Shown here in pieces: positions 10,547-45,892 of a DNA stretch of 64,000 bases (within the stretch, counting starts at the first letter, position 1; each line of letters opens with the position of its first letter). Made by a program: the position numbers and the translations under genes. Below the pieces are notes generated by a model, which saw only the letters and a list, made by a program, of their open reading frames with translations, was not told the DNA's origin and searched no databases. Source of the DNA: Patescibacteria group bacterium (lineage in GTDB: Bacteria > Patescibacteriota > Minisyncoccia > Phycocordibacterales > BOKC01); the NCBI GenBank assembly GCA_038062955.1, contig JBBTWE010000001.1, positions 453,640 through 517,639 on the forward strand. The letters run 5' to 3'.

Positions 10547-12335
<1,789 letters not shown>

Positions 12336-12366
12336 TATCAAATTTGTATCTCTTTCGACTAGTCCG

Positions 12367-12720
12367 TTATTTTATAATAGCGAGTATGCTTTCTTCTTTA
12401 AGAATATAGAGTTCTTCGCCTTCAACCTTAACCTCATCAAAACCATATTTAGAAAACAATACCCGGTCACCCACTTTTATTCTGATTGGAATGAGTTTAC
12501 CGTCTTCATACTTTCCCTCACCTACAGCAAGTACTTCACCTTGTTCTGGCTTCTCCTTATCTATTGTATCGGGAATTATAATTCCATACTGATTTTTCTT
12601 AGATAAATCAGAAGAAGAAAAAGGTTTGACCAAAATTCTGTCTTGAAGCGGCACAATCTTATGAGCTTTTTTTGTTTCGATTGCAGGACTTGATATTTTG
12701 GGGTTTTGTTTCCTTATCAT
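12367..12720 (-). CDS. groES: Co-chaperonin GroES with an unusual N-terminal extension of about 20 aa
   Basis: IVPLQDRILVKP...GEVLAVGEG...VGDRVLFSKY is canonical GroES. The ORF begins 20 codons further upstream (MIRKQNPKISSPAIETKKAHK). A GTG/ATT alternative start near IVPL is possible. Confidence 0.85.
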   Translation of the reverse strand: MIRKQNPKISSPAIETKKAHKIVPLQDRILVKPFSSSDLSKKNQYGIIIPDTIDKEKPEQGEVLAVGEGKYEDGKLIPIRIKVGDRVLFSKYGFDEVKVEGEELYILKEESILAIIK

Positions 12721-12751
12721 AAATATTTAACGATTGTAAATAATAAAAGAA

Positions 12752-12864
12752 AAATTTAAAAACTTTCAGATTTGAGCGCGGTTTTAACGAGTCAGAAATT
12801 TTATATCACTTCGTGATAAAAAATCTTCCGACATGATTTTTGTGGTGCAAAAATCAGAAATGTG
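12752..12864 (-). repeat. Dispersed intergenic repeat family, copy D (inverted relative to copy C, upstream of groES)
   Basis: Reverse complement is about 95% identical to copy C. Confidence 0.85.
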
Positions 12865-13004
12865 CCAAATGAGGAAGTTTTTTGGGGTGGACGTATTATA
12901 GAGGAATTAAAAACAGTAAGTCAACAAAAGAAGATTCCACTAGAGTTTATAGATTTTTATCTAGGTCATATAAAACGATAACTCCACTGACTACCACGGT
13001 CATC

Positions 13005-13033
13005 TTGTCAAAAACACCCTAATCGGCTAGAAT
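13005..13033 (+). promoter_or_regulatory. Sigma-70-like promoter TTGTCA-N17-TAGAAT upstream of secG
   Basis: Hexamers with 17-nt spacing, about 10 nt before the secG start. Confidence 0.5.
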
Positions 13034-13041
13034 ATCGGAAT

Positions 13042-13278
13042 ATGAATTTTATCGCAAACACCCTGCCTTTTTTCCAAATTATTCTATCTATTGCCTTAAT
13101 AGCCTTGATTCTCTTACAGAGATCAGAGGCTGGAGTTGGAGGAACTTTCGGAGGCGGTGAAGGAGGATCTGGCCACTTCGCTAGACGAGGAATGGAAAAA
13201 ATTCTATTTAACAGCACGGTAATTGTTGCTTTGCTTTTCGCCCTGTCTTCTTTTCTAGCTTTTTACTTTGGAGCGTAA
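13042..13278 (+). CDS. secG: Preprotein translocase subunit SecG
   Basis: Two TM helices flanking a glycine-rich loop (LLQRSEAGVGGTFGGGEGGSGHFARRG). Confidence 0.8.
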   Translation: MNFIANTLPFFQIILSIALIALILLQRSEAGVGGTFGGGEGGSGHFARRGMEKILFNSTVIVALLFALSSFLAFYFGA

Positions 13279-13380
13279 TCATTTGAGCTCAATCTCAAAT
13301 CATAGACTTAAATATCGATTGTTAAAAAAACTCTTAATTCTTGTAATATAAAAGTTGCTAATTTACGAAAAGAATATTAG

Positions 13381-15231
13381 GTGTTTTATATTCGTGTCAT
13401 TCGAATGCATTCGTATATTGGTGTCGCACTCATCATGGAAGAACTAAATCAGGATTTTTATCCAAAATTCGACAACACAAATTCTTTTTCAAATAAAAAA
13501 TCAAAAAGATGGCTTGGCCGTCTTGATTCAAGATTGAAAAAAATTCTTTCCAACTTATCAATTGTGGAGAGTTTTATTTTTTATTTATTTGTCGTTTTGT
13601 TTGCTTTCTCGGGGTTGTTTATGTTTTTTCAGTTAAATAACGTTTTCATGACGGAAGTTCCTGCTAAAAGAGGTTCTATAACTGAAGGTGTGATTGGCTA
13701 TCCTCGAGCAATCAATCCCCTTCTCGCGAGCGACTCCTCCGAAGCAGATAAAGATTTGGTGCTTTTAGTTTATTCCGGACTTCTCAAGGCGACCCCGGAA
13801 GGCGACCTGATCTCTGATCTAGCCGAGAGTTACAAAATTTCTAAAGACGGTTTAACGTATAGTTTTAAACTTAAAGATGATATCTATTTTCATGATGGCG
13901 TTGCAATCAAAACGGCAGATGTAAAATTTACAATTGAAAAAGCTCAAGACCCTTTAACTAAGAGTTCGGAAAGAATTAATTGGGACGGAGTACAAGTTAA
14001 GATATTGAATGACAAAGAATTGGACCTCGTCTTACCTCAAGCTTATGCCCCGTTTTTGGAAAATGCCACTCTCGGAATACTCCCTAAACACTTATGGGAA
14101 AATCTTGATGCAAATCAATTTGCTCTAAGTCCATTAAATTTGGAACCAATAGGATCTGGCCCTTATAAAGTTGAAAATATAAGAAGAGACAGAGACGGAC
14201 TCCCAATTTATTATTCTCTTGGATCATTCAAAAAATATGCCCTTGGACAACCTAATATTAAAGACATTTATCTAAAATTCTTTCTTAATGAAGAGAATTT
14301 GATTTTGGCATTTGAAGATGGACAGATAGAAAACATAAACAGCATTTCGCCGGGAAAAGCATTATCTCTTAAAAAAGATGGCTTTGAAATAAAACGCGCA
14401 ACCCTTTCAAGAATTTTTGGAGTATTTTTCAACCAAAGCCAAGCTCCAATATTCACCAACAAAGAAGTTCGCAAAGCTTTGGAAATGTCTGTCGACAAGA
14501 ATGCTTTAATCGCAAAAGTTTTAGCTGGTTATGGAAAACCAGTATCAAGCCCAGTCCCAATACAGTACCAATTGGTAAAAGAAAAGGAAGATACGCAATC
14601 AATTGAAGAAAGATTGAGTGAGGCAAGATTGATTCTTCAAAACGGCGGTTGGAAATTTGACGACGATAAAAAGCTTTGGACGAAGAAAGTGAAAGACGAA
14701 GAACTTGAACTAAGTTTTTCAATTTCAACAGCTGATACGCCTGATCTCAAAGCGGCCGCGCAGATCATAAAAGATAATTGGGAAAGTTTAGGCGCCAAGG
14801 TAGATGTTAAGGTTTTTGATTTAAGCGATCTAAAACAAAATATAATAAGGCCACGCAAATACGAAGCATTGCTTTTTGGTACAGTCATCGGACGCGATTT
14901 GGATTTATATCCATTCTGGCACTCATCACAGAGAAACGATCCGGGACTCAATATTGCGCTTTATGTAAACAAGGAAGCCGATAAAGTTTTAGAAGGGATT
15001 AGACAACTGACCGACAAAACACTCCGACTTCAAAAATACGCTGAATTTGGAAAGATGATCGAAGAGGATACACCTGCTGTCTTCATTTATTCTCCCGAAT
15101 TTATTTATTTAGTGCCAAATAGAATTAAAGATATTAAACTTGATTTTTTGACCACTTCAAGTGAAAGATTTTTAAACATTGAAGATTGGTATGTGGAAAC
15201 AGATAAGGTGTGGAAAATATTCGCAAACTAA
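13381..15231 (+). CDS. ABC transporter substrate-binding protein, family 5 (peptide/nickel type), membrane-anchored
   Basis: N-terminal TM segment and SBP_bac_5-like architecture. Start could be the internal M at 13435. Confidence 0.7.
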   Translation: MFYIRVIRMHSYIGVALIMEELNQDFYPKFDNTNSFSNKKSKRWLGRLDSRLKKILSNLSIVESFIFYLFVVLFAFSGLFMFFQLNNVFMTEVPAKRGSITEGVIGYPRAINPLLASDSSEADKDLVLLVYSGLLKATPEGDLISDLAESYKISKDGLTYSFKLKDDIYFHDGVAIKTADVKFTIEKAQDPLTKSSERINWDGVQVKILNDKELDLVLPQAYAPFLENATLGILPKHLWENLDANQFALSPLNLEPIGSGPYKVENIRRDRDGLPIYYSLGSFKKYALGQPNIKDIYLKFFLNEENLILAFEDGQIENINSISPGKALSLKKDGFEIKRATLSRIFGVFFNQSQAPIFTNKEVRKALEMSVDKNALIAKVLAGYGKPVSSPVPIQYQLVKEKEDTQSIEERLSEARLILQNGGWKFDDDKKLWTKKVKDEELELSFSISTADTPDLKAAAQIIKDNWESLGAKVDVKVFDLSDLKQNIIRPRKYEALLFGTVIGRDLDLYPFWHSSQRNDPGLNIALYVNKEADKVLEGIRQLTDKTLRLQKYAEFGKMIEEDTPAVFIYSPEFIYLVPNRIKDIKLDFLTTSSERFLNIEDWYVETDKVWKIFAN

Positions 15232-35990: not shown

Positions 35991-37226
35991 GTGATGAGAA
36001 AAAAAACTTACAAAGCAAAATGTCCCCACTGCGATCCAATTAATAAACATCCCGCCCATATTCAGGAACGTTTAAGTAACTTTTTCTTTGACTTTAAGAA
36101 ATTGCTGATTTCTATAGAAAACAAATTTAAAAACAAATTCCCAAAGTTCTTTAATCATTTAAACAAAATTGTGTTCTATGGCAGTATAAAAACTCTTATT
36201 ACTATAGGGATTTTGAGAGAAGTTGAAATACCGAAGAAAAATGACTTCATCTCAAATCGTACTTTTGTGTTTCTAGCAGCCGCAAAACAAAGAGGAATAG
36301 AAGTGAAAACATTCCAAACTTTTAGTGGACGAAAAACAAATTTTTTTTCAATCATTATTAATGAGAAGAAAAAAATCTTTGAAATATTGCCTCACAATAA
36401 TATCGATTATGTAGAAATGGTTGAATTTGATAATAAAGATAAATTCAAGGAAATTTTACAAACTAATAGATTTCCGCACCCTGATGGAAAATCATTCAGC
36501 AATATCGACCAAGGAATTAATTTTGCCAAACAAAGAAATTTTCCTTTTGTTGTTAAACCTAGCTCTAGTTCTTTAAGCAAACACATTACTTGTAATATAC
36601 ATGATATCTTCTCTTTAAAAGAAGCAATCCGTATAGCACAAATAATTAATAGAGACTTTATTTTAGAAGAACATGTGGATGGACTAGTATATAGGATAAC
36701 TTTAGTTAGACATAAATTTATAGCATGTTGCTTAAGAGAAGCGCCGAATATTGTTGGTGATAATATCCACACGATTAAAGAATTGATAGAACAAAAAAAT
36801 AACCACGAGTGGCGCGGGGAGCCAGAAAAGAAAAATTATACATTGCGAAAAATTAAACTTACAGACAAGACCACCTCTATATTAAACTCCAAAGGATTTT
36901 CTTTAGAAAGTGTTCCAGAAAAAAATCAGAAAATATACTTGCATGACAAAGTAATTCTGGCGTGTGGGGCAGATATTCATGACAGAACAGATGAGATTCA
37001 TCCTGATAATATAAAAATGTTTGAAAAAATATCGGAACTTTGCAGATCCCCTATTATCGGAATTGATTTTATCTGTAAAGATATTTCAAAATCTTACAAA
37101 GAACAAAAAAGTGCTGTTATAGAAGCAAACTCTTTGCCTTACATAGATATGCATCATTATCCGGTTTCTGGAAAACCTAGAGATGTAGGTGGAGCAATTG
37201 CCGACTATCTTCTGTCTTTAAAATAA
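35991..37226 (+). CDS. ATP-grasp ligase resembling cyanophycin synthetase (CphA) N-terminal plus G domains, lacking the Mur-ligase-like domain
   Basis: FPFVVKPSSSS..., HVDGLVYRITLV, APNIVGDNIHTIKELIE, PIIGIDFICKDIS, and the tail AVIEANSLPYIDMHHYPVSGKPRDVGGAIADYL, which closely matches the CphA/RimK-type ...E(V)N..PG...H..P..G.PR.VA.AI.D.L ending. Confidence 0.55.
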   Translation: MMRKKTYKAKCPHCDPINKHPAHIQERLSNFFFDFKKLLISIENKFKNKFPKFFNHLNKIVFYGSIKTLITIGILREVEIPKKNDFISNRTFVFLAAAKQRGIEVKTFQTFSGRKTNFFSIIINEKKKIFEILPHNNIDYVEMVEFDNKDKFKEILQTNRFPHPDGKSFSNIDQGINFAKQRNFPFVVKPSSSSLSKHITCNIHDIFSLKEAIRIAQIINRDFILEEHVDGLVYRITLVRHKFIACCLREAPNIVGDNIHTIKELIEQKNNHEWRGEPEKKNYTLRKIKLTDKTTSILNSKGFSLESVPEKNQKIYLHDKVILACGADIHDRTDEIHPDNIKMFEKISELCRSPIIGIDFICKDISKSYKEQKSAVIEANSLPYIDMHHYPVSGKPRDVGGAIADYLLSLK

Positions 37227-37840
37227 GACAACGATGGACGAAATCGCAAAAATAAGTTTCTAGGTTTCTTTACGTAAGTATCGAGAATTTTTTTGTACCC
37301 AACTTCCTCGACAATTTTCCATGCTTGAGTATATTCGTCGGTTTCGTGCTTAAGGCAAGATTTTTTGTTTATTTCAATCAACTCTGGTCTTTTTAAAACG
37401 TCTGTAAAGATATGTTCTAAAAGCGCATGGACTATAATGTGATTCTTTAGCAATTTTGGTTCTTTACCAAATTTTTCGGTAAATTCTTTAGTCCATCCGT
37501 AACCAGATTTATGAACTAACTCATGAATAAATCTATTGAGAAAATCCCCTACTTTAACGTGAGCTCCAATAACAATAGCCAGACTATATTGCCTATGACA
37601 AGCCGAGACTACCGACACATCAACGATTGAATAAGGGAATTTCCTGTGAGTCTTTTTCTCAATAGTCGAAAAAACTACAGTTTCAATCGGAGACCAGGCA
37701 TCTTTATACTCTTGAATTCTTTTATCTATCTCCTCTTGAGTTGGAATTTTGTAATCCTTAAACTTTGGAAGAGATAAACAAAAAGGCTTAAAAACCTCAT
37801 CTAGATTTGGATTGTATCTAATATTTACCTTTGGTTTCAT
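37205..37840 (-). CDS. Hypothetical protein with HExxH motif (putative zinc metallopeptidase-like)
   Basis: FIHELVHKSGYGW. Overlaps the 3' end of the ATP-grasp gene by 22 nt (convergent). Confidence 0.45.
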   Translation of the reverse strand: MKPKVNIRYNPNLDEVFKPFCLSLPKFKDYKIPTQEEIDKRIQEYKDAWSPIETVVFSTIEKKTHRKFPYSIVDVSVVSACHRQYSLAIVIGAHVKVGDFLNRFIHELVHKSGYGWTKEFTEKFGKEPKLLKNHIIVHALLEHIFTDVLKRPELIEINKKSCLKHETDEYTQAWKIVEEVGYKKILDTYVKKPRNLFLRFRPSLSYFKDRR

Positions 37841-37847
37841 TGAATTT

Positions 37848-38675
37848 TTAATTAACCTCTCTCCCCAAAATAAACGCTTCCTGCCCCGCCTTTTCTCTTT
37901 TTCTACAGAAGATAATTAGATTTTTATTTTCCTGGGGCGCGTAGATTTTTTCATCTCCATCCTTCCCCAAAAATTCACCTTTCTTGAGCAAACCAAAGTC
38001 AGAGAAATTTTTTGCTGGAATAAAATTATTTTTTGTATGGTATATCTTGTAAGCTTGGATTGTTTTTTGCGCGTTATTTTTTCCCGGTATTTGTCCTGAG
38101 ATTATATTGTGTAAAATTAGAAAATCCACGATAGCTTGTTTTGCTATTTCAATAGATGAGGTATCAAAATGATATCCACACTCAACACATAGCCCAAAAC
38201 CTCCTTTTTTATTCATATAATAATCAGTTCCACCAGGTTCAAGATCGTCCCACCCAAAAGACTTGATTGGAAATGATAATCTTTCAGCTATATGAAAAGA
38301 CTTGGGTTCGCAAATAATAAAGGGCGAGCTGTTTTTTGTTTTACTAGAATGTATATCAAGGGACGCTTCACTTTCATCTAAATAAGCCATTATTATCTCG
38401 GCACGTTTCCTTTCATAACTTTCCATCTCTTTTGCAGAAAGCATCTCTTTAGGTTTAAATGCACGGTTCAGATTCATTTCGATAAACCTTGTTTTTTTCT
38501 TAATGGCCAGTAAATTGCCATAGATAAAATGCACCTTACCTCTTTCAATTGAAAGTGTCGGTATAATTTCTTTAAATGCTTCGATACCACACGTCTCGTC
38601 ACCGTGAATACCAGCTAGGATAGAAATTGTTTTACCTGGTTTTTTCCCAATAATTGTTTGTATGCCATCTTTCAT
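37848..38675 (-). CDS. Succinylglutamate desuccinylase / aspartoacylase (AstE/AspA) family zinc hydrolase
   Basis: ISILAGIHGDETCGIEA matches the GxHGxE zinc-binding motif of the AstE_AspA family. Confidence 0.65.
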   Translation of the reverse strand: MKDGIQTIIGKKPGKTISILAGIHGDETCGIEAFKEIIPTLSIERGKVHFIYGNLLAIKKKTRFIEMNLNRAFKPKEMLSAKEMESYERKRAEIIMAYLDESEASLDIHSSKTKNSSPFIICEPKSFHIAERLSFPIKSFGWDDLEPGGTDYYMNKKGGFGLCVECGYHFDTSSIEIAKQAIVDFLILHNIISGQIPGKNNAQKTIQAYKIYHTKNNFIPAKNFSDFGLLKKGEFLGKDGDEKIYAPQENKNLIIFCRKREKAGQEAFILGREVN

Positions 38676-38707
38676 ATCTAAAAAAATTACCTTAATTCGT
38701 ATCAGTA

Positions 38708-39799
38708 TTATTCGACAAAAGAAGTTCTAAGTTTCGCTTCCACATTAAACCTCTTTATAGCAAGTTCAATAAGTGTATCGATCAATTTGCTATAAGATAC
38801 GCCACTTGCTTCCCATAATTTTGGATACATACTTATTGAAGTAAAACCTGGGATTGTATTTATTTCATTTACAATAATTTTATTATCTTTGGTTAAAAAG
38901 AAGTCGACCCTAGCCATTCCCTCACAACATAAAACTTCAAAAGTCTTAATTACCATTTTTTGAATATTTTTTATTGTAGATTTAGAAAGTTCCGCTGGAA
39001 TTTTTAATTCTGCTCCATTTTCGTCTAAATATTTAGCTTCGTATGAATAAAATTCGTGCTTGGGAATTATTTCACCCGGCAAAGATACTGTTGGTTTTTC
39101 GTTACCCAGAACAGAACATTCAATTTCACGTCCAGAAATATTTTCCTCGATCAATATTTTATTGTCATATAGAAAAGCAGAATCTATTGCCTTTTTAAAC
39201 TCTTTCTCCGAACGAACTTTTGAAACGCCCACTGACGATCCCAGATTTGCTGGCTTAACGAAGAAAGGCAGGGCAAGTTCTTTTTTTATTTTTTTGAACG
39301 AGATATATGCAAGTTCGTGTTTTTTATATACTAAAAACTTTGCAATTGGTAACTTAGCATCCCTTAACAATCTTTTCATCACATCTTTATCCATTCCTAG
39401 AGCAGAACCCAAAACACCTGCTCCGACAAAAGGAACGTTAGCAAGTTTGAGCAAGCCTTGAATAGTACCATCCTCACCAAATGGACCATGAAGCACTGGA
39501 AAAAAAACGTCAATCGGCTCATTTGTACTAGTATTTAATGTTTCAATTATTTTTCCACCATCCTGCGCCGCTAAAGCAATGGTATTAAGTGTATGTTTTT
39601 TCTCTATTTTTTCACCTTTCAAAATTAATTTTGATTCGATCTCTGGCAACCAACGACCGGTTTTATCTATACCAATCAAAATTGGTTCATATTTATTTTT
39701 ATCTAAGGCATCTATAATATTCTTTGCGGATCTAATCGATACCTCATGCTCAGCTGATTTTCCGCCATATAAAATACCAACGCGTATTTTTTTATTCAT
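38708..39799 (-). CDS. ddl: D-alanine--D-alanine ligase
   Basis: RVGILYGGKSAEHEVSIRSAKNI..., ATP-grasp core, EINTIPGFTSISMYPKLWEASG C-terminal motif. Confidence 0.85.
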   Translation of the reverse strand: MNKKIRVGILYGGKSAEHEVSIRSAKNIIDALDKNKYEPILIGIDKTGRWLPEIESKLILKGEKIEKKHTLNTIALAAQDGGKIIETLNTSTNEPIDVFFPVLHGPFGEDGTIQGLLKLANVPFVGAGVLGSALGMDKDVMKRLLRDAKLPIAKFLVYKKHELAYISFKKIKKELALPFFVKPANLGSSVGVSKVRSEKEFKKAIDSAFLYDNKILIEENISGREIECSVLGNEKPTVSLPGEIIPKHEFYSYEAKYLDENGAELKIPAELSKSTIKNIQKMVIKTFEVLCCEGMARVDFFLTKDNKIIVNEINTIPGFTSISMYPKLWEASGVSYSKLIDTLIELAIKRFNVEAKLRTSFVE

Positions 39800-40055
39800 A
39801 TAATTTATCCATTATAATCTATCATTTACAAATATCATCATAGTATCAAAAGAAATTATATGACACGGTGATTGGTGTCTAGACATAGGTTAAATATACA
39901 AAAAAGCGACCGTATGCTAAAAGAAAATTTTCATTTGACAATAATTGTCAAAAGTATTAGGGTTAATTTGGATCAACTGAGACTTGTCTTCATCAACATT
40001 TGGTGATGGCAATACTTTTCGTCTCAGGGTTCTTTCAAAAAAAGTTGGTAGAGAC

Positions 40056-40244
40056 ATGAGCCATCAGCAGATACCCGAGCAGGGCAAGGTCACGTTGTGT
40101 GGAGTAGAGGGATGTTGTCCCACAATCGACTTCACGGATCCTCACAAGGTGATTCTGAAGGACGACTTCGGTGGTCAAGTACAACTCACGCACGATCAGT
40201 GGGATGATCTGAAGACCAAGTTCTCGAAGGCCCATCAGGCCTGA
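40056..40244 (+). CDS. GC-rich small Cys-containing protein, DUF397-like (62 aa; ORF opens at 39984)
   Basis: LCGVEGCCP...VILKDDFGGQVQLTHDQWDDLKTKF resembles the DUF397 pattern C.EVA...V.VRDSKDP.GP.L.FT..EW..F. Immediately upstream of a radical-SAM/SPASM enzyme. Confidence 0.5.
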   Translation: MSHQQIPEQGKVTLCGVEGCCPTIDFTDPHKVILKDDFGGQVQLTHDQWDDLKTKFSKAHQA

Positions 40245-40347
40245 GCGGTTCTGGCATCGTGTACGATGTCAGGCTATCAGCTCTCAGCTACGCAAGTGGT
40301 TGGGAGCTGTTTCATTATTTACTAACCCCATTAGAGGATACAAGCAC

Positions 40348-41679
40348 ATGCTGTCCCGATATCTTTGCGTTCAGGAGAGAGATGGTGTTGTGGCGTTATT
40401 CCACGAACTTCATCCCGATCCTATCTTCTGTTCTTTAGATCAGTGGAAAAATCTTCTCGGTGGAATTATTGACGGTATCGAAGCGCTTCTTACTAAACTA
40501 AGAGAGCTCAGACTTATTGTCGATACACCCGAAGATGACGACCGTGAGTTTAAGCTAGTCGCCACTGCTCTTGAGCGTAAGCTCAACCAGCCGACAATCC
40601 TTTATCTCATGACATCTCAGGGTTGCAACTTTGGTTGTAAATACTGTCCTGTGCCGGAAACTGCAAAAAAGTACGGTGAATCGCTCCTTTCTAAAGAAGA
40701 TGCCGTCGCAGGCATTGATCTGTGGCAAGAACACATCACGGATGTGTACGACCCCGCCTTGAGATATTTCGTCATCTTCTATGGTGGCGAACCATTACTC
40801 AACCAAGCAGTGATCAAGGATTCCTTAAAGCATATCAAGACGAAGAAAGACGCCGGCAAATTGCCAGCAGACCTCAACATCATGATTGCAACAAATGGAT
40901 CCTTAGTGAACGCTGAAACCATTGCTTTATGTAAAGAATATGAAGTGATGGTTGCCGTTGGACTCGATGGTCCCAAATCACCAAACGACATACTGAAAGT
41001 GGATAGGGATGGTGCCGGAACGTATGATTTGATCGTCTCGACAATCAAATTACTCGTTCAACACGGAATCAGAACATTCGCATCAGTAAGTATCACACCC
41101 TTCAACATCGAACAGATTGCGGAGTATTCTGAATTTTTCAGTGAATTGGGAGTCGAAAAATTTGGCTTCAATTTTCTGAAGGGTCGACTACTTCTCGAAC
41201 TGGTTGGTCATGATGGTTTGAATAGCTACTATCGGCAGGCTTCGCATGGCATTATCGAGAATGCTCGCCGCCAGAGCAAGCCCGGATTTGAATACCAGAT
41301 GGAGAAGAAGCAAGTTGCTTTCGACAATAAGGATTTCTTCCCTGTCGACTGTACCTGCTATGGAAATCAACTGGTGATCCAACCTGACGGACAGATTTCC
41401 AATTGCCCATTTTTCAAAGCCTGGCTCGGCCAAGCAAGAGAGGTGAGCAAAGATTTTCGCATTTGGGATCAGCCAATCGTCAAGGAATGGCGGAAACGCT
41501 TACCTCTTTATCACTCAGGGCAAGCAAAAGCTATGTGTGGAGGTGGGTGTGCATGGAGTTCAAGCGAACTGAAAGGAAGTCCGCTTGCTGTTGATGATTC
41601 AAGTTCCATCTTTTCAAAGGAAGTACTCAATGAACTCATCTGGTCACGATACGACCGGGCCGAGTCTCAGAAAGCCTAG
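40348..41679 (+). CDS. Radical SAM/SPASM-domain enzyme with N-terminal RRE (PqqD-like) domain; putative peptide or protein maturase
   Basis: CNFGCKYC (CxxxCxxC), SPASM Cys clusters CTCYGNQLVIQPDGQISNC and CGGGCAW. N-terminal roughly 85 aa (ERDGVVALFHEL...SLDQWKNLLGG) fit the RRE pattern. RBS agagga before ATG at 40348. Confidence 0.7.
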   Translation: MLSRYLCVQERDGVVALFHELHPDPIFCSLDQWKNLLGGIIDGIEALLTKLRELRLIVDTPEDDDREFKLVATALERKLNQPTILYLMTSQGCNFGCKYCPVPETAKKYGESLLSKEDAVAGIDLWQEHITDVYDPALRYFVIFYGGEPLLNQAVIKDSLKHIKTKKDAGKLPADLNIMIATNGSLVNAETIALCKEYEVMVAVGLDGPKSPNDILKVDRDGAGTYDLIVSTIKLLVQHGIRTFASVSITPFNIEQIAEYSEFFSELGVEKFGFNFLKGRLLLELVGHDGLNSYYRQASHGIIENARRQSKPGFEYQMEKKQVAFDNKDFFPVDCTCYGNQLVIQPDGQISNCPFFKAWLGQAREVSKDFRIWDQPIVKEWRKRLPLYHSGQAKAMCGGGCAWSSSELKGSPLAVDDSSSIFSKEVLNELIWSRYDRAESQKA

Positions 41680-42478
41680 TCTTGGGATTATCGGGGGCTC
41701 GGGAATGTGTGCATTTCCCGAACTCAAGGTAATCTCAAGACTACGGCCTGAGACAAAGTACGGTCTTCCGTCAGACGAAATCGCGATCTGCGAGCATGAC
41801 GGACAACTCATTGCTTTCTTGCCGAGACACGGCTCGAAGCATACGCTGGCACCACACAAGGTGCCGTACAAGGCAAACCTTGCAGCCCTGAAGAAGATCG
41901 GGGTCGAATATGTCATCGGAACCTGTATTGTCGGAAGCCTTAAAAAAGAGATCGCTCCCGGCAGTCTGGTAATCCCTGACCAATTCGTCAATCTAACTTG
42001 GGGTCGTGACGACCATTCAGAGGCAGATGGAGGTTCATTCGTCCATCTGCCAATGGGGGAGCCGTACTGTGGCCACCTTCGCAAGAAGATCATGGAGCAA
42101 TCTGTTGCTACTCAGACAGCAATAATTCCGCAAGGGACGGTTGCTGTGATACAAGGTCCGCGATTCTCAACCACTGCAGAAAGCCGATGGTTTTCTGCGA
42201 ACGGATGGGACATCGTCAACATGACTCAGTATCCAGAGTGCTACTTTGCACGCGAACTCGGACTCTGTTACGCAGCAATTGCAGCGGTAACGGATTACGA
42301 TGTCGGTCTTCAGGAAAATCTTGTCATTGATCCGCGTCACATGGACGCTGTGCTCGTTGTCTTTAAGGACAACATTCGAAAAACAAAGAACTTCTTATTA
42401 GCCTTTATCGAAAGTGCGCTTGGTGATCTTTCGTGCAAATGCGCATCTGTCGTACTAAAGGCCTATTACGAAGCATAG
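41630..42478 (+). CDS. S-methyl-5'-thioadenosine / 5'-deoxyadenosine phosphorylase-like (PNP/MTAP family)
   Basis: GIIGGSG N-terminal motif, PNP_UDP_1 fold pattern. Overlaps the rSAM gene 3' end. Confidence 0.7.
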   Translation: MNSSGHDTTGPSLRKPSLGIIGGSGMCAFPELKVISRLRPETKYGLPSDEIAICEHDGQLIAFLPRHGSKHTLAPHKVPYKANLAALKKIGVEYVIGTCIVGSLKKEIAPGSLVIPDQFVNLTWGRDDHSEADGGSFVHLPMGEPYCGHLRKKIMEQSVATQTAIIPQGTVAVIQGPRFSTTAESRWFSANGWDIVNMTQYPECYFARELGLCYAAIAAVTDYDVGLQENLVIDPRHMDAVLVVFKDNIRKTKNFLLAFIESALGDLSCKCASVVLKAYYEA

Positions 42479-42490
42479 GTGTGAAAACAC

Positions 42491-42525
42491 TCCCCCGCTG
42501 AAGAATATTCTCAGCGGGGTTTTTA
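42491..42525 (+). terminator. Intrinsic terminator (ccccgctga...tcagcgggg plus T-run)
   Basis: Follows the phosphorylase gene. Confidence 0.7.
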
Positions 42526-42622
42526 TTGACCCACCTTGCTATCATTAGCGTCTCATGTTACTTTATCGTAGGAACAGTACATTTACAGTGTTATAATATG
42601 CCCACAAACAAAGGAGACAATC

Positions 42623-44299
42623 ATGCTACAAGCAAAACACATTCAAAAAAGCTACGGCGCTCTGACTGTGCTTGCTGATGTCTCCTTCTCCTTGGCTAAA
42701 GGGCAGAAGGTGGCATTAGTCGGCGACAACGGGATTGGTAAGACAACTATTCTCAAGATCATTGCCGGACTGACGGAGCCTGACGCTGGCGAGATCGAAC
42801 TCGCCAAGAATACGTACATCGGATATCTCCCGCAGGATACCAGTCTATCGGGCAATGAAACGATCAGTGCGTATTTGAGGCGGATCACAGGCATTGATGC
42901 CCTTGAGCAAAAACTCGAGGCACTTGCTTCTCACCTTGAGGACAAGGCGAAGACGGATGAGTACGGGGACGCACACGAGCAATACGAGCGTCTCGACGGC
43001 TATGCCTTTGAGCATCGCATCAAAGTGATGCTTGCAGGTTTCGGTTTTGATAACATCGGTATTGATCATCGTCTGTCCGGTTTAAGTAGCGGACAGAAAA
43101 GCAAAGTGATGCTAGCGGGGATTCTCCTCAAAGGTGTCGATCTCTTGCTTCTCGATGAGCCGACGAACAATCTTGATCTGCCAGCACTCATCTGGCTTGA
43201 GGATTTCCTCCGGAAGTCCAATGCCGCTTGCATTGTCATTTCTCATGACCGTCGGTTTCTTGACCGAGTTGTGAAGAAAATCTTCGAGCTTGACCGGCAT
43301 ACGCGCGTACTCAACATTTCAGGAGGCACATACAGTGACTATCTTGCAGTGGTGGCGAAGCGCGTTGCTCGACAAAAGGAAGAATATCGACTCCAACAGG
43401 AGGAGATAGAACGCCTTTCCGATCAGGCACGACAGCAGAGAGTTGCTTCGGCTAAGGGGTCAAACTGGCAAGGAAGCGACAATGACAAGTTCTCGCGAGG
43501 TTTCAAGCGAGACCGTGCAGGAAGATCTGGCAGAAAAGCTAAAATACTCGAAAAGCGAATCGATCAGATGGAAAAAGTTGAAAAACTCATCGAACGCGCT
43601 CCGTTTGAGATTCCGCTTAAGGCCGAAGTTGGTCCCGGAACGCTTGATATCCGTCTCCTCGACGTGGTAGCAGGATACACGGACGGCTTCAGTATCGGTC
43701 CTGTGTCATTTGAAGCACGGTATGAGAGCAGAGTTGGCATCATGGGCTTAAACGGTGCCGGGAAGTCAACACTACTCAAGACTATTACCGGCCAACTGGC
43801 GGCACGTAGCGGCACGATCGAGATTGGTTCCGGTGTTAAAATCGGAAACATGATGCAGGAGCATGAAAGCCTGCCTCGTGATTGCACGCTTTTTGAGTTT
43901 CTTAAGGAGCGTGCGGGGCTCAAAGACAACGAGGTCTACAGTCAGCTCGCAAAGTTTGGCCTCCAAGAAGGTCAAGTGAAGCAGCCAATCAGTACTCTGA
44001 GTCCTGGTGGCCGTGCTCGATTGCTTCTGGCCTTATTTTCTGCTCAGTCGGTCAACGTGTTGGTCCTCGACGAGCCTACAAATCACCTCGATCTTGAGGC
44101 GCTCGAAGCTCTAGAGGAAACGATCGAAGCCTATCGAGGAACAATATTGCTCGTGTCTCACGATCGATACTTTCTCGAAAAAGCACGACTTGATTCCACG
44201 TATACATTGTCGGAAGGGGTTCTCACCAAAATTCCTGATTACAAAACGTATGTGGCACAAGCCGAGGAGCGAGCATTGCAGCTCTTGAAGTCACTGTAG
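42623..44299 (+). CDS. ABC-F family ATPase (two ABC domains, no transmembrane domain)
   Basis: Two Walker A sites (GDNGIGKTT, GLNGAGKST), two LSGGQ-type signatures (LSSGQKSKV, LSPGGRARL), charged linker. 558 aa. GC-rich. Strong RBS aaaggagacaatcATG. Confidence 0.8.
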   Translation: MLQAKHIQKSYGALTVLADVSFSLAKGQKVALVGDNGIGKTTILKIIAGLTEPDAGEIELAKNTYIGYLPQDTSLSGNETISAYLRRITGIDALEQKLEALASHLEDKAKTDEYGDAHEQYERLDGYAFEHRIKVMLAGFGFDNIGIDHRLSGLSSGQKSKVMLAGILLKGVDLLLLDEPTNNLDLPALIWLEDFLRKSNAACIVISHDRRFLDRVVKKIFELDRHTRVLNISGGTYSDYLAVVAKRVARQKEEYRLQQEEIERLSDQARQQRVASAKGSNWQGSDNDKFSRGFKRDRAGRSGRKAKILEKRIDQMEKVEKLIERAPFEIPLKAEVGPGTLDIRLLDVVAGYTDGFSIGPVSFEARYESRVGIMGLNGAGKSTLLKTITGQLAARSGTIEIGSGVKIGNMMQEHESLPRDCTLFEFLKERAGLKDNEVYSQLAKFGLQEGQVKQPISTLSPGGRARLLLALFSAQSVNVLVLDEPTNHLDLEALEALEETIEAYRGTILLVSHDRYFLEKARLDSTYTLSEGVLTKIPDYKTYVAQAEERALQLLKSL

Positions 44300-44304
44300 T
44301 TCAT

Positions 44305-44345
44305 GAACCCGGGAGAGCGAAAGCTTTTCCCGGGTTCTTTTTTAA
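44305..44345 (+). terminator. Intrinsic terminator (aacccggga...tcccgggtt plus T-run)
   Basis: Follows the ABC-F stop. The first 16 codons of ORF 44303 run through it, so the downstream gene start is moved to 44351. Confidence 0.7.
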
Positions 44346-44350
44346 CCATG

Positions 44351-44989
44351 ATCAAATCAGAACGTATAGCGAAAAGAATAAGCCAAGAAATAAAAGTGTG
44401 GAAGAAAAACCATGCTAAATTAGTCGTGGCTATTGATGGATATGCTGGCTCTGGAAAAACCACTGTAGCTGATTTCATTGCAAAGCAAAATAGCGATATC
44501 TTAGTGGTACATATTGATGATTTTATTAATCATTGGGAGAACAGAAAACAGATGATAGACAGTGCCAAAGATAAATCAAAAATCTTTGAATATAATTGGT
44601 ATCGATATGACGACATGAAAAGACTCATCGAAGAATTTTTGAATAAAAAGATTGGGACAATTCAATTTCAAACATACGATTATATTAAAAATGATTTTGG
44701 TCCAGAACAATCATTTGATCTTTCAAAGAAAATTTTACTGATAGATGGAATATTTCTATTTCATCCTAAACACCCGATAATTAAGTTGATGGATAAAAAG
44801 ATTTATCTTGACGCTAATTTCGATAAAGCAGATAAAAAAAGAATTTTGAGAGAAAAAAATAAATTGGGCAAATCACACGTTCCTGAGAATCATCCAGATA
44901 ACTGGATTCAATATTTTAAGATAGCTTATAAAAGATATATAAAAGAATATAATCCTGCGAAAAAAGCAGATTTAGTTTTTCGGGTTTAA
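44351..44989 (+). CDS. P-loop nucleoside/nucleotide kinase (uridine-kinase-like)
   Basis: VVAIDGYAGSGKTTVADFIA Walker A with the uridine-kinase-type context. Confidence 0.55.
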   Translation: MKSERIAKRISQEIKVWKKNHAKLVVAIDGYAGSGKTTVADFIAKQNSDILVVHIDDFINHWENRKQMIDSAKDKSKIFEYNWYRYDDMKRLIEEFLNKKIGTIQFQTYDYIKNDFGPEQSFDLSKKILLIDGIFLFHPKHPIIKLMDKKIYLDANFDKADKKRILREKNKLGKSHVPENHPDNWIQYFKIAYKRYIKEYNPAKKADLVFRV

Positions 44990-45019
44990 ATCAAAAGTTA
45001 TAAAATAACTGTTCTAATC

Positions 45020-45418
45020 ATGCTCAAACCAAAACGTATAGCCCGAGGAATAATTCTGAATAATGACAAGATATTGCTCTGCAAAAACCTGAAACACGGC
45101 TCTTATTTTTTGCCTGGCGGTCATATAGAAAATGAAGAATCTGCTCAAAATGCTCTTGCAAGAGAGGTACGAGAAGAGATGGGTAAAGTTGTTTTATCAA
45201 GCAAGAAAATATCTGGGGTTGAAAATACTTTTACAGAAGACGACATCGAACACAGAGAGGTTATTTATTTGTACTCTGTAGAACTCCAAGATTATGAAAA
45301 CATTAAAAGCTTAGAAGATCACATCGATTTTGAGTGGATATTGATCACTGATTTTTCAAAGATCAATTTCAGACCAGAAAAAATGACTCGGGTTGTACTT
45401 AAAAATATAAAAAAATAA
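45020..45418 (+). CDS. NUDIX hydrolase
   Basis: Nudix box GGHIENEESAQNALAREVREEMG. Confidence 0.8.
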   Translation: MLKPKRIARGIILNNDKILLCKNLKHGSYFLPGGHIENEESAQNALAREVREEMGKVVLSSKKISGVENTFTEDDIEHREVIYLYSVELQDYENIKSLEDHIDFEWILITDFSKINFRPEKMTRVVLKNIKK

Positions 45419-45892
45419 ATGCCAAAAAAATTTACGGAAGAAGAATACGCTAAAATTCTCCCAAAGAAGCGAGTTGGAGCAGGAGTTTTATTTTTTAACA
45501 CAAAGGGTGAACTACTTATTGTAAAACCGGATTATAGAAAAGAGTGGCTTGTACCAGGAGGAGTCACTGACGAAAATGAATCTCCACTTCACTCTGCGGT
45601 TAGAGAAGTAAAAGAAGAGATCGGGCTTGATGTGACAGAATTAAAATTGGTGGGAGTATATTACGGACCGAAAAATGGAATTTTCACTGATTCGCTTAAA
45701 TTCATCTTTTCAGGTGGTGTTTTAACTGAAGATCAGATTGCTCGCATTAAATTGCAAAAGGAAGAATTGGAAGAATACAGATTCGTTTCCATAGAAAACG
45801 CACTATCCGTTTTATCTATAAGTTTACAGAAAAGCATACCAGCATGTTTAAAAGCTATTAAAAATAAAACGGTCGCTTATATAGAAATATAG
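45419..45892 (+). CDS. NUDIX hydrolase (tandem second copy)
   Basis: Nudix box PGGVTDENESPLHSAVREVKEEIGL. Confidence 0.8.
   Translation: MPKKFTEEEYAKILPKKRVGAGVLFFNTKGELLIVKPDYRKEWLVPGGVTDENESPLHSAVREVKEEIGLDVTELKLVGVYYGPKNGIFTDSLKFIFSGGVLTEDQIARIKLQKEELEEYRFVSIENALSVLSISLQKSIPACLKAIKNKTVAYIEI

Follow-up and report, generated by a model that had tools for sequence, protein, structure and literature searches.

We analysed a stretch of 64,000 nucleotides (nt) from a contig of a Patescibacteria group bacterium (JBBTWE010000001.1, positions 453,640 to 517,639), which is called the window here. It carries a GC-rich island with genes for a cysteine-loop mini-protein, a radical S-adenosylmethionine (rSAM) enzyme, a purine nucleoside phosphorylase and an ABC-F ATPase, and an AT-rich kinase gene follows them. 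These genes make up a real cassette that appears to have spread horizontally and occurs mainly in the tiny-genome Patescibacteria. Positions below are those of the window. Gene coordinates are the gene calls on the source contig, for which CAYIIC010000001.1 of the metagenome-assembled genome GCA_964363395.1 was used, and domains were scanned with NCBIfam and with Pfam, the latter at a reporting threshold of E<0.01 for the window proteins.

In the window the cassette genes, the two NUDIX genes that follow them and the three hairpins described below are on the + strand. The small gene at 40056–40244, both an open reading frame (ORF) and a gene call, encodes the mini-protein of 62 aa. The rSAM enzyme of 443 aa is encoded at 40348–41679 (PF04055, AlphaFold2 (AF2) model and Foldseek), the MTAP-family purine nucleoside phosphorylase of 282 aa at 41630–42478 (PF01048 and NCBIfam MTAP models) and the ABC-F ATPase of 558 aa at 42623–44299 (NF000355). 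The kinase is a P-loop protein of the PRK/uridine-kinase family with 213 aa (44348–44989; PF00485). The first-pass annotation, made from the sequence alone, had put the rSAM gene 45 nt past the small gene. The start supported by homologues is the ATG at 40348 (MLSRYL; family consensus MWSxYL), and the gap becomes 103 nt.

In 500-nt steps, the GC content is 0.30–0.37 through 39999, 0.45–0.51 across 40000–44499 and 0.28 at 44500. The island (40056–44299) has 48.6% GC against 37.1% in the rest of the window and is the most GC-rich block within the 64 kb. The island in AT-rich DNA and its four ORFs are thus as first described. Their extent is not, since the cassette does not end with four genes at 44345 but reaches on to the AT-rich kinase gene, which also belongs to the conserved set.

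The same annotation had warned that the GC shift might be an assembly chimera. Both junctions recur in three further public assemblies, so a chimera is ruled out. One ENA contig from a Hainich groundwater sample duplicates them at 99.99% identity, and two Logan contigs from different sequencing runs have the same sequence across both GC boundaries (100%). A search of the window revealed no integrase, no adjacent transfer RNA (tRNA) gene and no convincing flanking direct or inverted repeats at the insertion.

Conservation across genomes and horizontal spread

The survey covered 77 loci from GTDB species representatives plus loci from exact-protein look-up, and their six-frame ORFs were searched with the window proteins. 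The counted set consists of 46 non-redundant loci with an orthologous rSAM gene and enough flank. Loci whose rSAM protein scores below 175 bits were taken as other rSAM families.

The small gene lies directly 5′ of the rSAM gene in 46/46 loci, and the phosphorylase gene directly 3′ of it in 46/46 as well. None of the small gene, phosphorylase or ABC-F neighbours occurs at the loci with an rSAM gene of another family. The presence at every family locus and at no other-family locus upholds the suspected functional link of the small ORF to the rSAM enzyme. It also removes the initial doubt that the small ORF might not be conserved beside the rSAM gene in homologous loci.

The rest of the set is more variable. 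An ABC-F gene is adjacent in 39/46 loci. Any P-loop kinase, from three unrelated families, is found in 22/46 and the PRK/uridine-kinase type in 15/46, a Pol-beta-type nucleotidyltransferase in 8/46, a NUDIX gene within 7 kb in 6/46 and a HIT gene in 3/46. ABC-F, kinase and nucleotidyltransferase are never all missing from a locus. The seven loci without ABC-F have a kinase (3) or a nucleotidyltransferase (4), and the nucleotidyltransferase is enriched there (Fisher p=0.012). The ABC-F gene is located upstream in 3 loci and is also divergently oriented in two Pseudonocardiales loci.

The record titles are mostly of Patescibacteria, or Candidate Phyla Radiation (CPR), with Parcubacteria, Paceibacteria, Zambryski-, Uhr-, Berkel-, Kerfeld- and Giovannonibacteria among them. 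Outside the CPR are two Pseudonocardiales metagenome-assembled genomes (MAGs) and one Bacillota MAG. Each genome has its own set of genes beside the cassette.

The GC content of the core, from the small gene through the ABC-F gene, is 32–61% and mostly 43–61%, and that of the flanks is 29–70%. The core lies above its flanks by up to +0.16 where they are AT-rich (+0.14 in the window) and below them by down to −0.13 in Pseudonocardiales. It deviates by more than +0.03 in 33 of 51 loci and beyond −0.03 in 10. Because the core keeps its own range while the flanks vary so widely, its composition points to repeated horizontal transfer of the cassette. The horizontal acquisition first proposed for the island agrees with these departures in both directions and with flanks that change per genome.

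The pairwise identities correlate with those of the rSAM enzyme at 0.93 for the phosphorylase, 0.85 for the ABC-F protein and 0.85 for the kinase. The two halves of the cassette differ in their identity to loci L017 and L018. The small-protein and rSAM half is 58–73% identical to the window copy (rSAM 72–73%), and the phosphorylase and ABC-F half is 86–88% identical (phosphorylase 86%, ABC-F 88%). This mosaic implies recombination inside the cassette and suggests a possible breakpoint between the rSAM and phosphorylase genes. At 90% identity the window ABC-F belongs to a cluster of 36 members, including Vogelbacteria, Zambryskibacteria and 'Aquabacterium' MAGs, whereas the cluster of the window rSAM enzyme has 2 members.

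At locus L014 a serine recombinase gene (12054–13661; Resolvase, Recombinase and Zn_ribbon_recom domains) is placed directly 3′ of the cassette. Locus L013, otherwise identical to L014, has different genes at that position. The recombinase hints at a mobile context for the L014 copy.

The encoded proteins and transcription signals

The mini-protein starts with MSHQQ and has the landmarks CGVEGCCPT and DDFGG. In the family alignment C15, G16, C21, P22 and D37 are invariant, and G19, C20, D36, G39, V42 and L44 are near-invariant. Conservation spans the entire protein and leaves no variable core. The AF2 model, with a predicted local distance difference test (pLDDT) score of 81.5, has four strands and a C-terminal helix.

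Homologues of the mini-protein form 396 clusters at 90% identity, and all the named ones are labelled 'hypothetical'. An exhaustive hidden Markov model (HMM) search of a 50%-identity library returned 358 representatives, and the 150 listed are all 47–127 aa long. There is no model for it in Pfam and NCBIfam, and no family in PHROGs for it or its phage-context relatives. One homologue, P0242 (116 aa), is a tandem duplication of the domain, the second copy being without two of the three Cys (FRGHNCYLRIDF...).

The C-terminus had been called DUF397-like at first reading. The resemblance to DUF397/BldB proteins is by eye only. It comprises the size and the order of a Cys-containing strand, a charged/Gly turn and then ...W..F...GE-hydrophobic, and it stands out most in the Pseudonocardiales copies with their ...KVHQGELA ending. 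Membership is not supported by the Pfam scans, in which the window protein has no match to DUF397 (PF04149) at E<0.01. Of 41 family members, a single one gets as far as E=0.12. DUF397 genes pair with XRE regulators (PMC10364602, PMC6262351), whereas no XRE neighbour was seen at the cassette loci looked at.

Distant relatives of the mini-protein are shorter (47–59 aa) and keep the LCG...CCP and DD[FY]GG motifs. The short ones (P0297, P0312, P0352 and P0380; L093, L097, L098, L100, L101 and L102) sit in phage head-tail modules. A relative is shortly 3′ of an HK97-gp10-like gene in three of the loci looked up, and one longer phage-like contig also has terminase, portal and Mu-F genes. In L097 and L098 a weak glutaredoxin-like gene lies two genes 5′ of the relative.

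The rSAM enzyme matches PF04055 at E 2.7e-18 (67.1 bits against a cut-off of 29.5), and its CNFGCKYC motif (C93, C97, C100) is invariant in 20 homologues. The call of a radical SAM enzyme with CxxxCxxC is thereby confirmed. More than 450 relatives are known from the search, the nearest 76% identical to the window protein. NCBIfam and Pfam have no specific model for this family.

Outside the CxxxCxxC motif, only C335, C337, C353 and C401 are conserved among the 20 homologues (54–76% identity). A profile alignment to anSMEcpe, an anaerobic sulfatase-maturating enzyme (anSME), places C335, C353 and C401 on C261, C276 and C330, which we take to be the ligands of auxiliary cluster I (Aux I) in the published structure. 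In the C-terminal domain CX10GX4C is present and CX2CX5CX3C, the motif of the auxiliary cluster II (Aux II) ligands, is absent. The first Cys of the 'CGGGC' in the window protein is Ser in most relatives.

At the sequence level, the Cys conservation and the anSMEcpe alignment rule out the SPASM twin-cluster domain that had been annotated, as one auxiliary-cluster site is conserved and the Aux II motif is missing. The window rSAM has no match to PF13186 (SPASM) at E<0.01, and one homologue has a precomputed match. The Cys pattern of the C-terminal domain suggests a SPASM domain from which Aux II has been lost rather than a classical Twitch domain.

The AF2 model of the enzyme (pLDDT 90.7) starts with a domain of three strands and three helices at residues 6–79, followed by the rSAM barrel. 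The predicted strands are 6–11, 14–19 and 26–29 and the helices 30–37, 45–53 and 61–79. Foldseek against the PDB ranks CteB best (E 1.6e-17), then TigE, SuiB, ChlB, anSME and SkfB. The matches to CteB, TigE and SuiB (E 1e-17 to 1e-12) are full-length, including the recognition element (RRE) with which maturases of ribosomally synthesised and post-translationally modified peptides (RiPPs) are equipped. The alignments have 457–482 columns for the RRE-bearing maturases versus 381–392 for anSME without RRE. The RiPP-maturase-like architecture seen at first is borne out by these top matches.

The leading NCBIfam matches are all peptide maturases, and the best is the FibroRumin maturase TIGR04136 with 131.7 bits against a cut-off of 400. 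Other curated rSAM maturase models (PapB, CcpM, QhpD, SCIFF, anSME and others) give 49–89 bits against cut-offs of 300–855. The enzyme is thus placed in an uncurated family in the peptide-maturase branch.

It had been considered whether the enzyme is an anSME acting on a sulfatase encoded elsewhere. It is not, as TIGR03942 gives 61.8 against a cut-off of 349 and the small-gene neighbour is conserved. The two enzymes share the superfamily branch and the aligned Aux I cysteines, but the cassette rSAM has the extra RRE-like N-terminal domain and no sulfatase neighbour, and the mini-protein has CCPT[VI], not CxPxR.

The phosphorylase matches PF01048 (PNP_UDP_1) at E 2.4e-34, and NCBI names it 'MTAP family purine nucleoside phosphorylase'. 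Its homology is full-length to Sulfolobus MTAP 1V4N, the best solved relative (E 6e-53), and to human MTAP (E 1.5e-47). It retains the RHG..H, NMT, GPRFS and TDYD motifs, which in human MTAP contain the residues that bind phosphate, ribose and adenine. However, it stays under all the NCBIfam MTAP equivalog cut-offs (NF005876 266.7 against 306; TIGR01694 247.1 against 274.85). Its subfamily has an invariant Cys at the position of human MTAP T93, plus invariant NMTQYPEC and LTWGRD. T93 is a phosphate-binding residue in the human enzyme.

The phosphorylase gene begins inside the rSAM gene, with 50 nt (41630–41679) common to both, and the shared stretch is ~40–50 nt in the other gene-called loci. 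The overlapping MTAP/PNP-family phosphorylase of the first-pass annotation is upheld, and so is its coupling to the rSAM enzyme. We know of no described arrangement in which an MTAP gene obligately overlaps an rSAM gene.

The ABC-F protein has two ABC_tran domains, Walker B DEPTN in both and a long interdomain linker. It passes NF000355, 'ribosomal protection-like ABC-F', with 416.2 bits against a cut-off of 380, and was correctly assigned to this family from the start. It is approximately equidistant from EttA, YheS, VmlR and YbiT (E 1e-59 to 1e-70). Its linker aligns end to end with those of VgaA-LC, VmlR and MsrE, whereas the alignment with EttA, YheS and YbiT covers its first half and stops near residue 85. 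In length and alignment the linker is of the antibiotic resistance (ARE) type, as far as sequence can tell.

The ABC-F protein resembles the ARE-type proteins, both OleB, CarA and LmrC and VmlR, VgaA and MsrE, in passing NF000355, in the linker alignment and in adjoining a putative biosynthetic core. It differs in failing each specific resistance model and in being about equally far from EttA, YheS and YbiT. The named models (Vga, Msr, Lsa, Sal, OptrA, CplR and producer-type) give 157–303 bits against cut-offs of 680–1450, and the EttA model of NCBIfam is failed too.

Terminators had been mentioned for the island, and terminator-like hairpins are indeed sited at 40278–40309, 42493–42519 and 44305–44337. 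The first, predicted as a GC-rich hairpin of 14 bp with a T-rich tail, is located between the small and rSAM genes. The best hairpin within 100 nt past the small-gene stop is at or below −15 kcal/mol in 45/48 loci, against 8/48 in two intragenic controls. The stems vary in sequence among loci with the pairing retained, and a T-rich tract is found 3′ of many. No Rfam family matches it. A leaky terminator between precursor and enzyme genes is the usual RiPP operon layout, and the hairpin is a candidate attenuator or leaky terminator.

The second hairpin is palindromic and GC-rich and is followed by TTTTTATT. The hairpin scan listed it on the minus strand, and by reading of the sequence the T-run is on the + strand. 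It is a candidate intrinsic terminator that would close the unit of small, rSAM and phosphorylase genes. The third, predicted with 13 bp and then TTTTTT, resembles an intrinsic terminator and is directly 3′ of the ABC-F gene at the compositional edge of the island. Just 5′ of the ABC-F gene, TGtTATAAT would by reading fit an extended −10 element, but the promoter scan did not report it.

Accessory genes and other local features

The kinase matches PF00485 at E 1.5e-14, and its 213-aa start is that of the NCBI protein model with which it shares a cluster at 90% identity. Across loci the PRK-type kinase gene is mostly directly 3′ of the ABC-F or the phosphorylase gene. The window gene has 29.8% GC and looks native, yet it travels with the cassette, because the kinase GC runs on average 10 points under the core in 22 loci and is under the flanks even in GC-richer hosts. 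Other neighbours are PSTK/KTI12-like kinases and the Pol-beta-type nucleotidyltransferase.

Past the kinase gene, two tandem NUDIX hydrolase genes are located at 45020–45892 (PF00293). They are possible loose accessories, not core. About 45 nt spanning the start codons of the kinase gene (44337–44381) and of the first NUDIX gene (45009–45053) are 78% identical (TAAYCATGMTCAAAYCARAACGTATAGC). The ABC-F start (42619–42638) carries a 20-nt version of the TAAYCATGMTCAAAYCARAACGTATAGC-type sequence. The repeat could be a recombination junction or a common translation-initiation signal.

Two unrelated loci (L008 2961–5310; L053 9820–12185) carry a tyrosyl-tRNA synthetase gene no more than a few kb from the cassette. 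The L053 copy is directly 3′ of the kinase gene and is followed by CYTH and NUDIX genes, and the L008 copy adjoins a SAM synthetase gene. This proximity may be a coincidence in small genomes.

Upstream of the island (35991–37226 and 37205–39799), the window encodes a D-Ala-D-Ala ligase and an AstE/AspA-type deacylase-like protein. The same stretch has an unannotated 211-aa protein and a 411-aa ORF without a Pfam match on record for the source contig.

A perfect 17-bp palindrome, TTGACAATAATTGTCAA, is found at 39935–39951, ~105 nt 5′ of the small gene, and is the sole such site in the window. It agrees at 13/15 positions with TGATAATNATTATCA, which we take to be the Fur-box consensus, as a 7-1-7 box of the Fur family. 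It is missing upstream of the cassette in the other genomes compared, so a conserved operator 5′ of the small gene is rejected. The palindrome may be a host-specific operator.

Proposed protein maturation and its rivals

By analogy with known maturases, we consider the chances about even that this is a mobile protein-maturation cassette of the RiPP-maturase type. Our confidence is much lower in any specific modification chemistry and physiological role. We infer the substrate role of the small protein, the action of the phosphorylase on 5′-deoxyadenosine and the self-protection by the ABC-F protein.

In this model, the RRE-like domain would dock the mini-protein, and the rSAM enzyme would abstract a hydrogen atom and install a Cys-based modification on it. 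On the precedent of QhpD/QhpC, CteB and SkfB, the favoured product would have at least one intramolecular thioether joining the Cys loop to the acidic DDxGG loop. Through the hairpin, transcripts of the small gene would outnumber those of the enzyme genes. MTAP-type enzymes are able to clear 5′-deoxyadenosine, and the phosphorylase, produced in parallel with the rSAM enzyme, would remove this inhibitory by-product.

The product would probably stay a modified intracellular protein, because the conserved set is without a peptidase or exporter. By the usual features of RiPP gene clusters, the precursor-like adjacency is there in 46/46 loci, and no leader peptidase, exporter or other peptidase or transporter family recurs among the neighbours of these loci. 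The ABC-F protein, with the kinase or nucleotidyltransferase replacing it, might protect or tune the ribosome against the product, or handle the product.

The closest parallels are CteB with its substrate CteA and the related sacti-/ranthipeptide maturases, along with TigE (8VPO) and SuiB (5V1T). They share with the cassette the full-length structural match and a Cys-bearing product encoded directly 5′. CteB (PDB 5WGG and 5WHY) is also the best PDB sequence-profile match to the rSAM enzyme (E 1.7e-20). However, the identity to CteB is ~17%, and the SPASM domain of CteB has two auxiliary clusters against one conserved site here. Moreover, the substrate candidate in the cassette is a folded, fully conserved protein of 60 aa without a variable core.

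In the maturation of quinohemoprotein amine dehydrogenase, QhpD cross-links QhpC, a small protein and not a short secreted peptide, via Cys-to-Asp/Glu thioethers. In the mini-protein, similarly, three Cys are conserved and the DD pair is invariant, and the quino_hemo_SAM model gives the cassette enzyme 82.7 bits. This score is, however, far under the cut-off of 453, the cassette is without the dehydrogenase subunits, the QhpE peptidase and QhpG, and the thioether is hypothetical. SkfB forms a thioether on a peptide. As a 'Twitch' enzyme it resembles the cassette enzyme in the single auxiliary-cluster site that the latter appears to keep, and by a Foldseek match at E 4e-11, but the C-terminal domain of the cassette enzyme opens with the SPASM-type CX10GX4C.

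Several observations weigh against protein maturation as drawn above. The site and type of the modification are guesses. The N-terminal domain had been called PqqD/RRE-like. Its fold and the Foldseek alignment over the RRE support this call, but the window rSAM has no match to Pfam PqqD (PF05402) at E<0.01. No rSAM gene was found near the phage-context relatives of the mini-protein. Because these relatives keep the motifs without an rSAM enzyme, the cysteines have a fold-intrinsic role, possibly metal binding or redox, and they need not be modification sites. Conservation over the full length is more typical of a folded partner or a cofactor precursor than of an antibiotic RiPP.

The flanking enzymes add to these doubts. 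With Cys replacing T93 and scores under the MTAP equivalog cut-offs, the phosphorylase may have a substrate other than plain 5′-deoxyadenosine or 5′-methylthioadenosine. In the window a terminator-like hairpin precedes the ABC-F gene, which may be transcribed on its own. The kinase and the nucleotidyltransferase have no significant similarity to solved or curated drug-modifying or resistance enzymes, so we do not class them as drug-modifying enzymes.

Some of these points favour a different role for the mini-protein, as a metal, iron–sulfur or redox partner or a nucleic-acid adaptor. The rSAM enzyme would then act on another target, for instance a nucleoside, a tRNA or ribosomal RNA, or a ribosomal component, with the ABC-F protein as the ribosome partner. 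The three Cys and DDxGG that persist in phage relatives without an rSAM gene, the folded-domain-like conservation throughout and the PSTK/KTI12-like kinases and Pol-beta-type nucleotidyltransferase among the neighbours all suit such a role. The rSAM enzyme itself does not, since its N-terminal domain is of the peptide-recognition type and aligns in full length with peptide maturases, and the order of small gene, hairpin and enzyme is that of a typical RiPP precursor operon. We regard this alternative as unlikely.

The tight hold on the phosphorylase may be read in another way. The rSAM enzyme could add a 5′-deoxyadenosyl group to the mini-protein or a small molecule, and the MTAP-like enzyme, as a biosynthetic step, would remove adenine by phosphorolysis to leave a 5-deoxyribosyl(-1-phosphate) adduct, which the kinase, NUDIX and HIT proteins would process. 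Such add-then-trim logic is followed by HpnH/HpnG for the hopanoid side chain and by MqnE/MqnB in the futalosine pathway. Like the rSAM enzyme, the phosphorylase is invariant across the loci. The two genes overlap and their identities correlate at r=0.93, a coupling closer than the salvage of a by-product would usually call for. The phosphorylase is an MTAP subfamily of its own, with invariant changes near the active site (Cys at T93, NMTQYPEC, LTWGRD) and scores under the MTAP cut-offs, and nucleotide-handling neighbours are common (kinase 22/46, NUDIX 6/46, HIT 3/46).

Nevertheless, the fold and HMM matches of the rSAM enzyme are hydrogen-abstracting peptide maturases, not HpnH or MqnE. The mini-protein offers no evident group to accept the radical, for example an alkene or dehydroalanine, and the TDYD motif and MTAP similarity fit plain 5′-deoxyadenosine or 5′-methylthioadenosine equally. 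Adenosylation with trimming thus appears improbable.

A bolder form of the maturation model is that the rSAM enzyme turns the mini-protein into a translation-targeting effector, cross-linked or ribosyl-bearing after MTAP-like trimming. The ABC-F protein, the P-loop kinases and the nucleotidyltransferase would be interchangeable immunity or control modules. We give it a small chance. If true, it would be the first ribosome-directed product system of Patescibacteria and a new class of protein modification. It would also be a new partnership of ABC-F with a RiPP-like product, spreading by horizontal gene transfer among very small genomes.

An anti-phage defence or conflict system, in which a host copy of the phage virion-module mini-protein, the rSAM enzyme, the nucleotide enzymes and the ABC ATPase act on infection, is very unlikely. 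Its patchy, transfer-prone distribution with a composition independent of the host would fit, as would the relatives in phage head-tail modules and the serine recombinase adjoining the L014 copy. But PADLOC returned only weak generic matches, pVip (37.5 bits) to the rSAM core and ABC/AAA models to the ATPase. The ATPase is a genuine member of the ABC-F translation-factor family, and nucleases, TIR, Sir2 and membrane effectors are all missing from the conserved gene set.

That the block is no system at all, but a chimera or a random neighbourhood of housekeeping genes in which the small ORF is spurious, is scarcely credible: the abrupt GC step and the lack of an integrase, tRNA or flanking repeat at the block could suggest it, but the junctions in 3 assemblies, the gene order in 46 loci of many lineages and the hundreds of small-ORF homologues exclude chance and artefact.

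Compared with these rivals, the maturation cassette remains the reading that we prefer, and parts of it are familiar. An RRE-bearing rSAM enzyme beside the gene of a Cys-containing product is known. New are the folded mini-protein as the putative substrate type, the overlapping MTAP-like enzyme and the module of ABC-F, kinase and nucleotidyltransferase. Full-text literature searches on ABC-F with rSAM or RiPP, and on RiPPs in CPR, found no description of the cassette. We know of no precedent for an ABC-F protein tied to an rSAM peptide maturase.

The cassette raises the question of how a peptide-maturase-type rSAM enzyme acts on a folded protein of 60 residues with relatives in phage virion modules. 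Another is whether an MTAP-type enzyme locked to it by overlap serves by-product control or a new adenosyl-trimming chemistry. A third is which signal an orphan ABC-F subfamily with a resistance-type linker answers. Known triggers are mostly lacking for ABC-F proteins beyond EttA and the clinical resistance factors, so a genetically linked candidate trigger would be useful. If the product targets translation, it would be a lead for a new inhibitor.

Patescibacteria, with their very small genomes, are commonly regarded as having little specialised metabolism. Among them, a five-gene cassette appears to be exchanged often enough that its base composition does not track its hosts.

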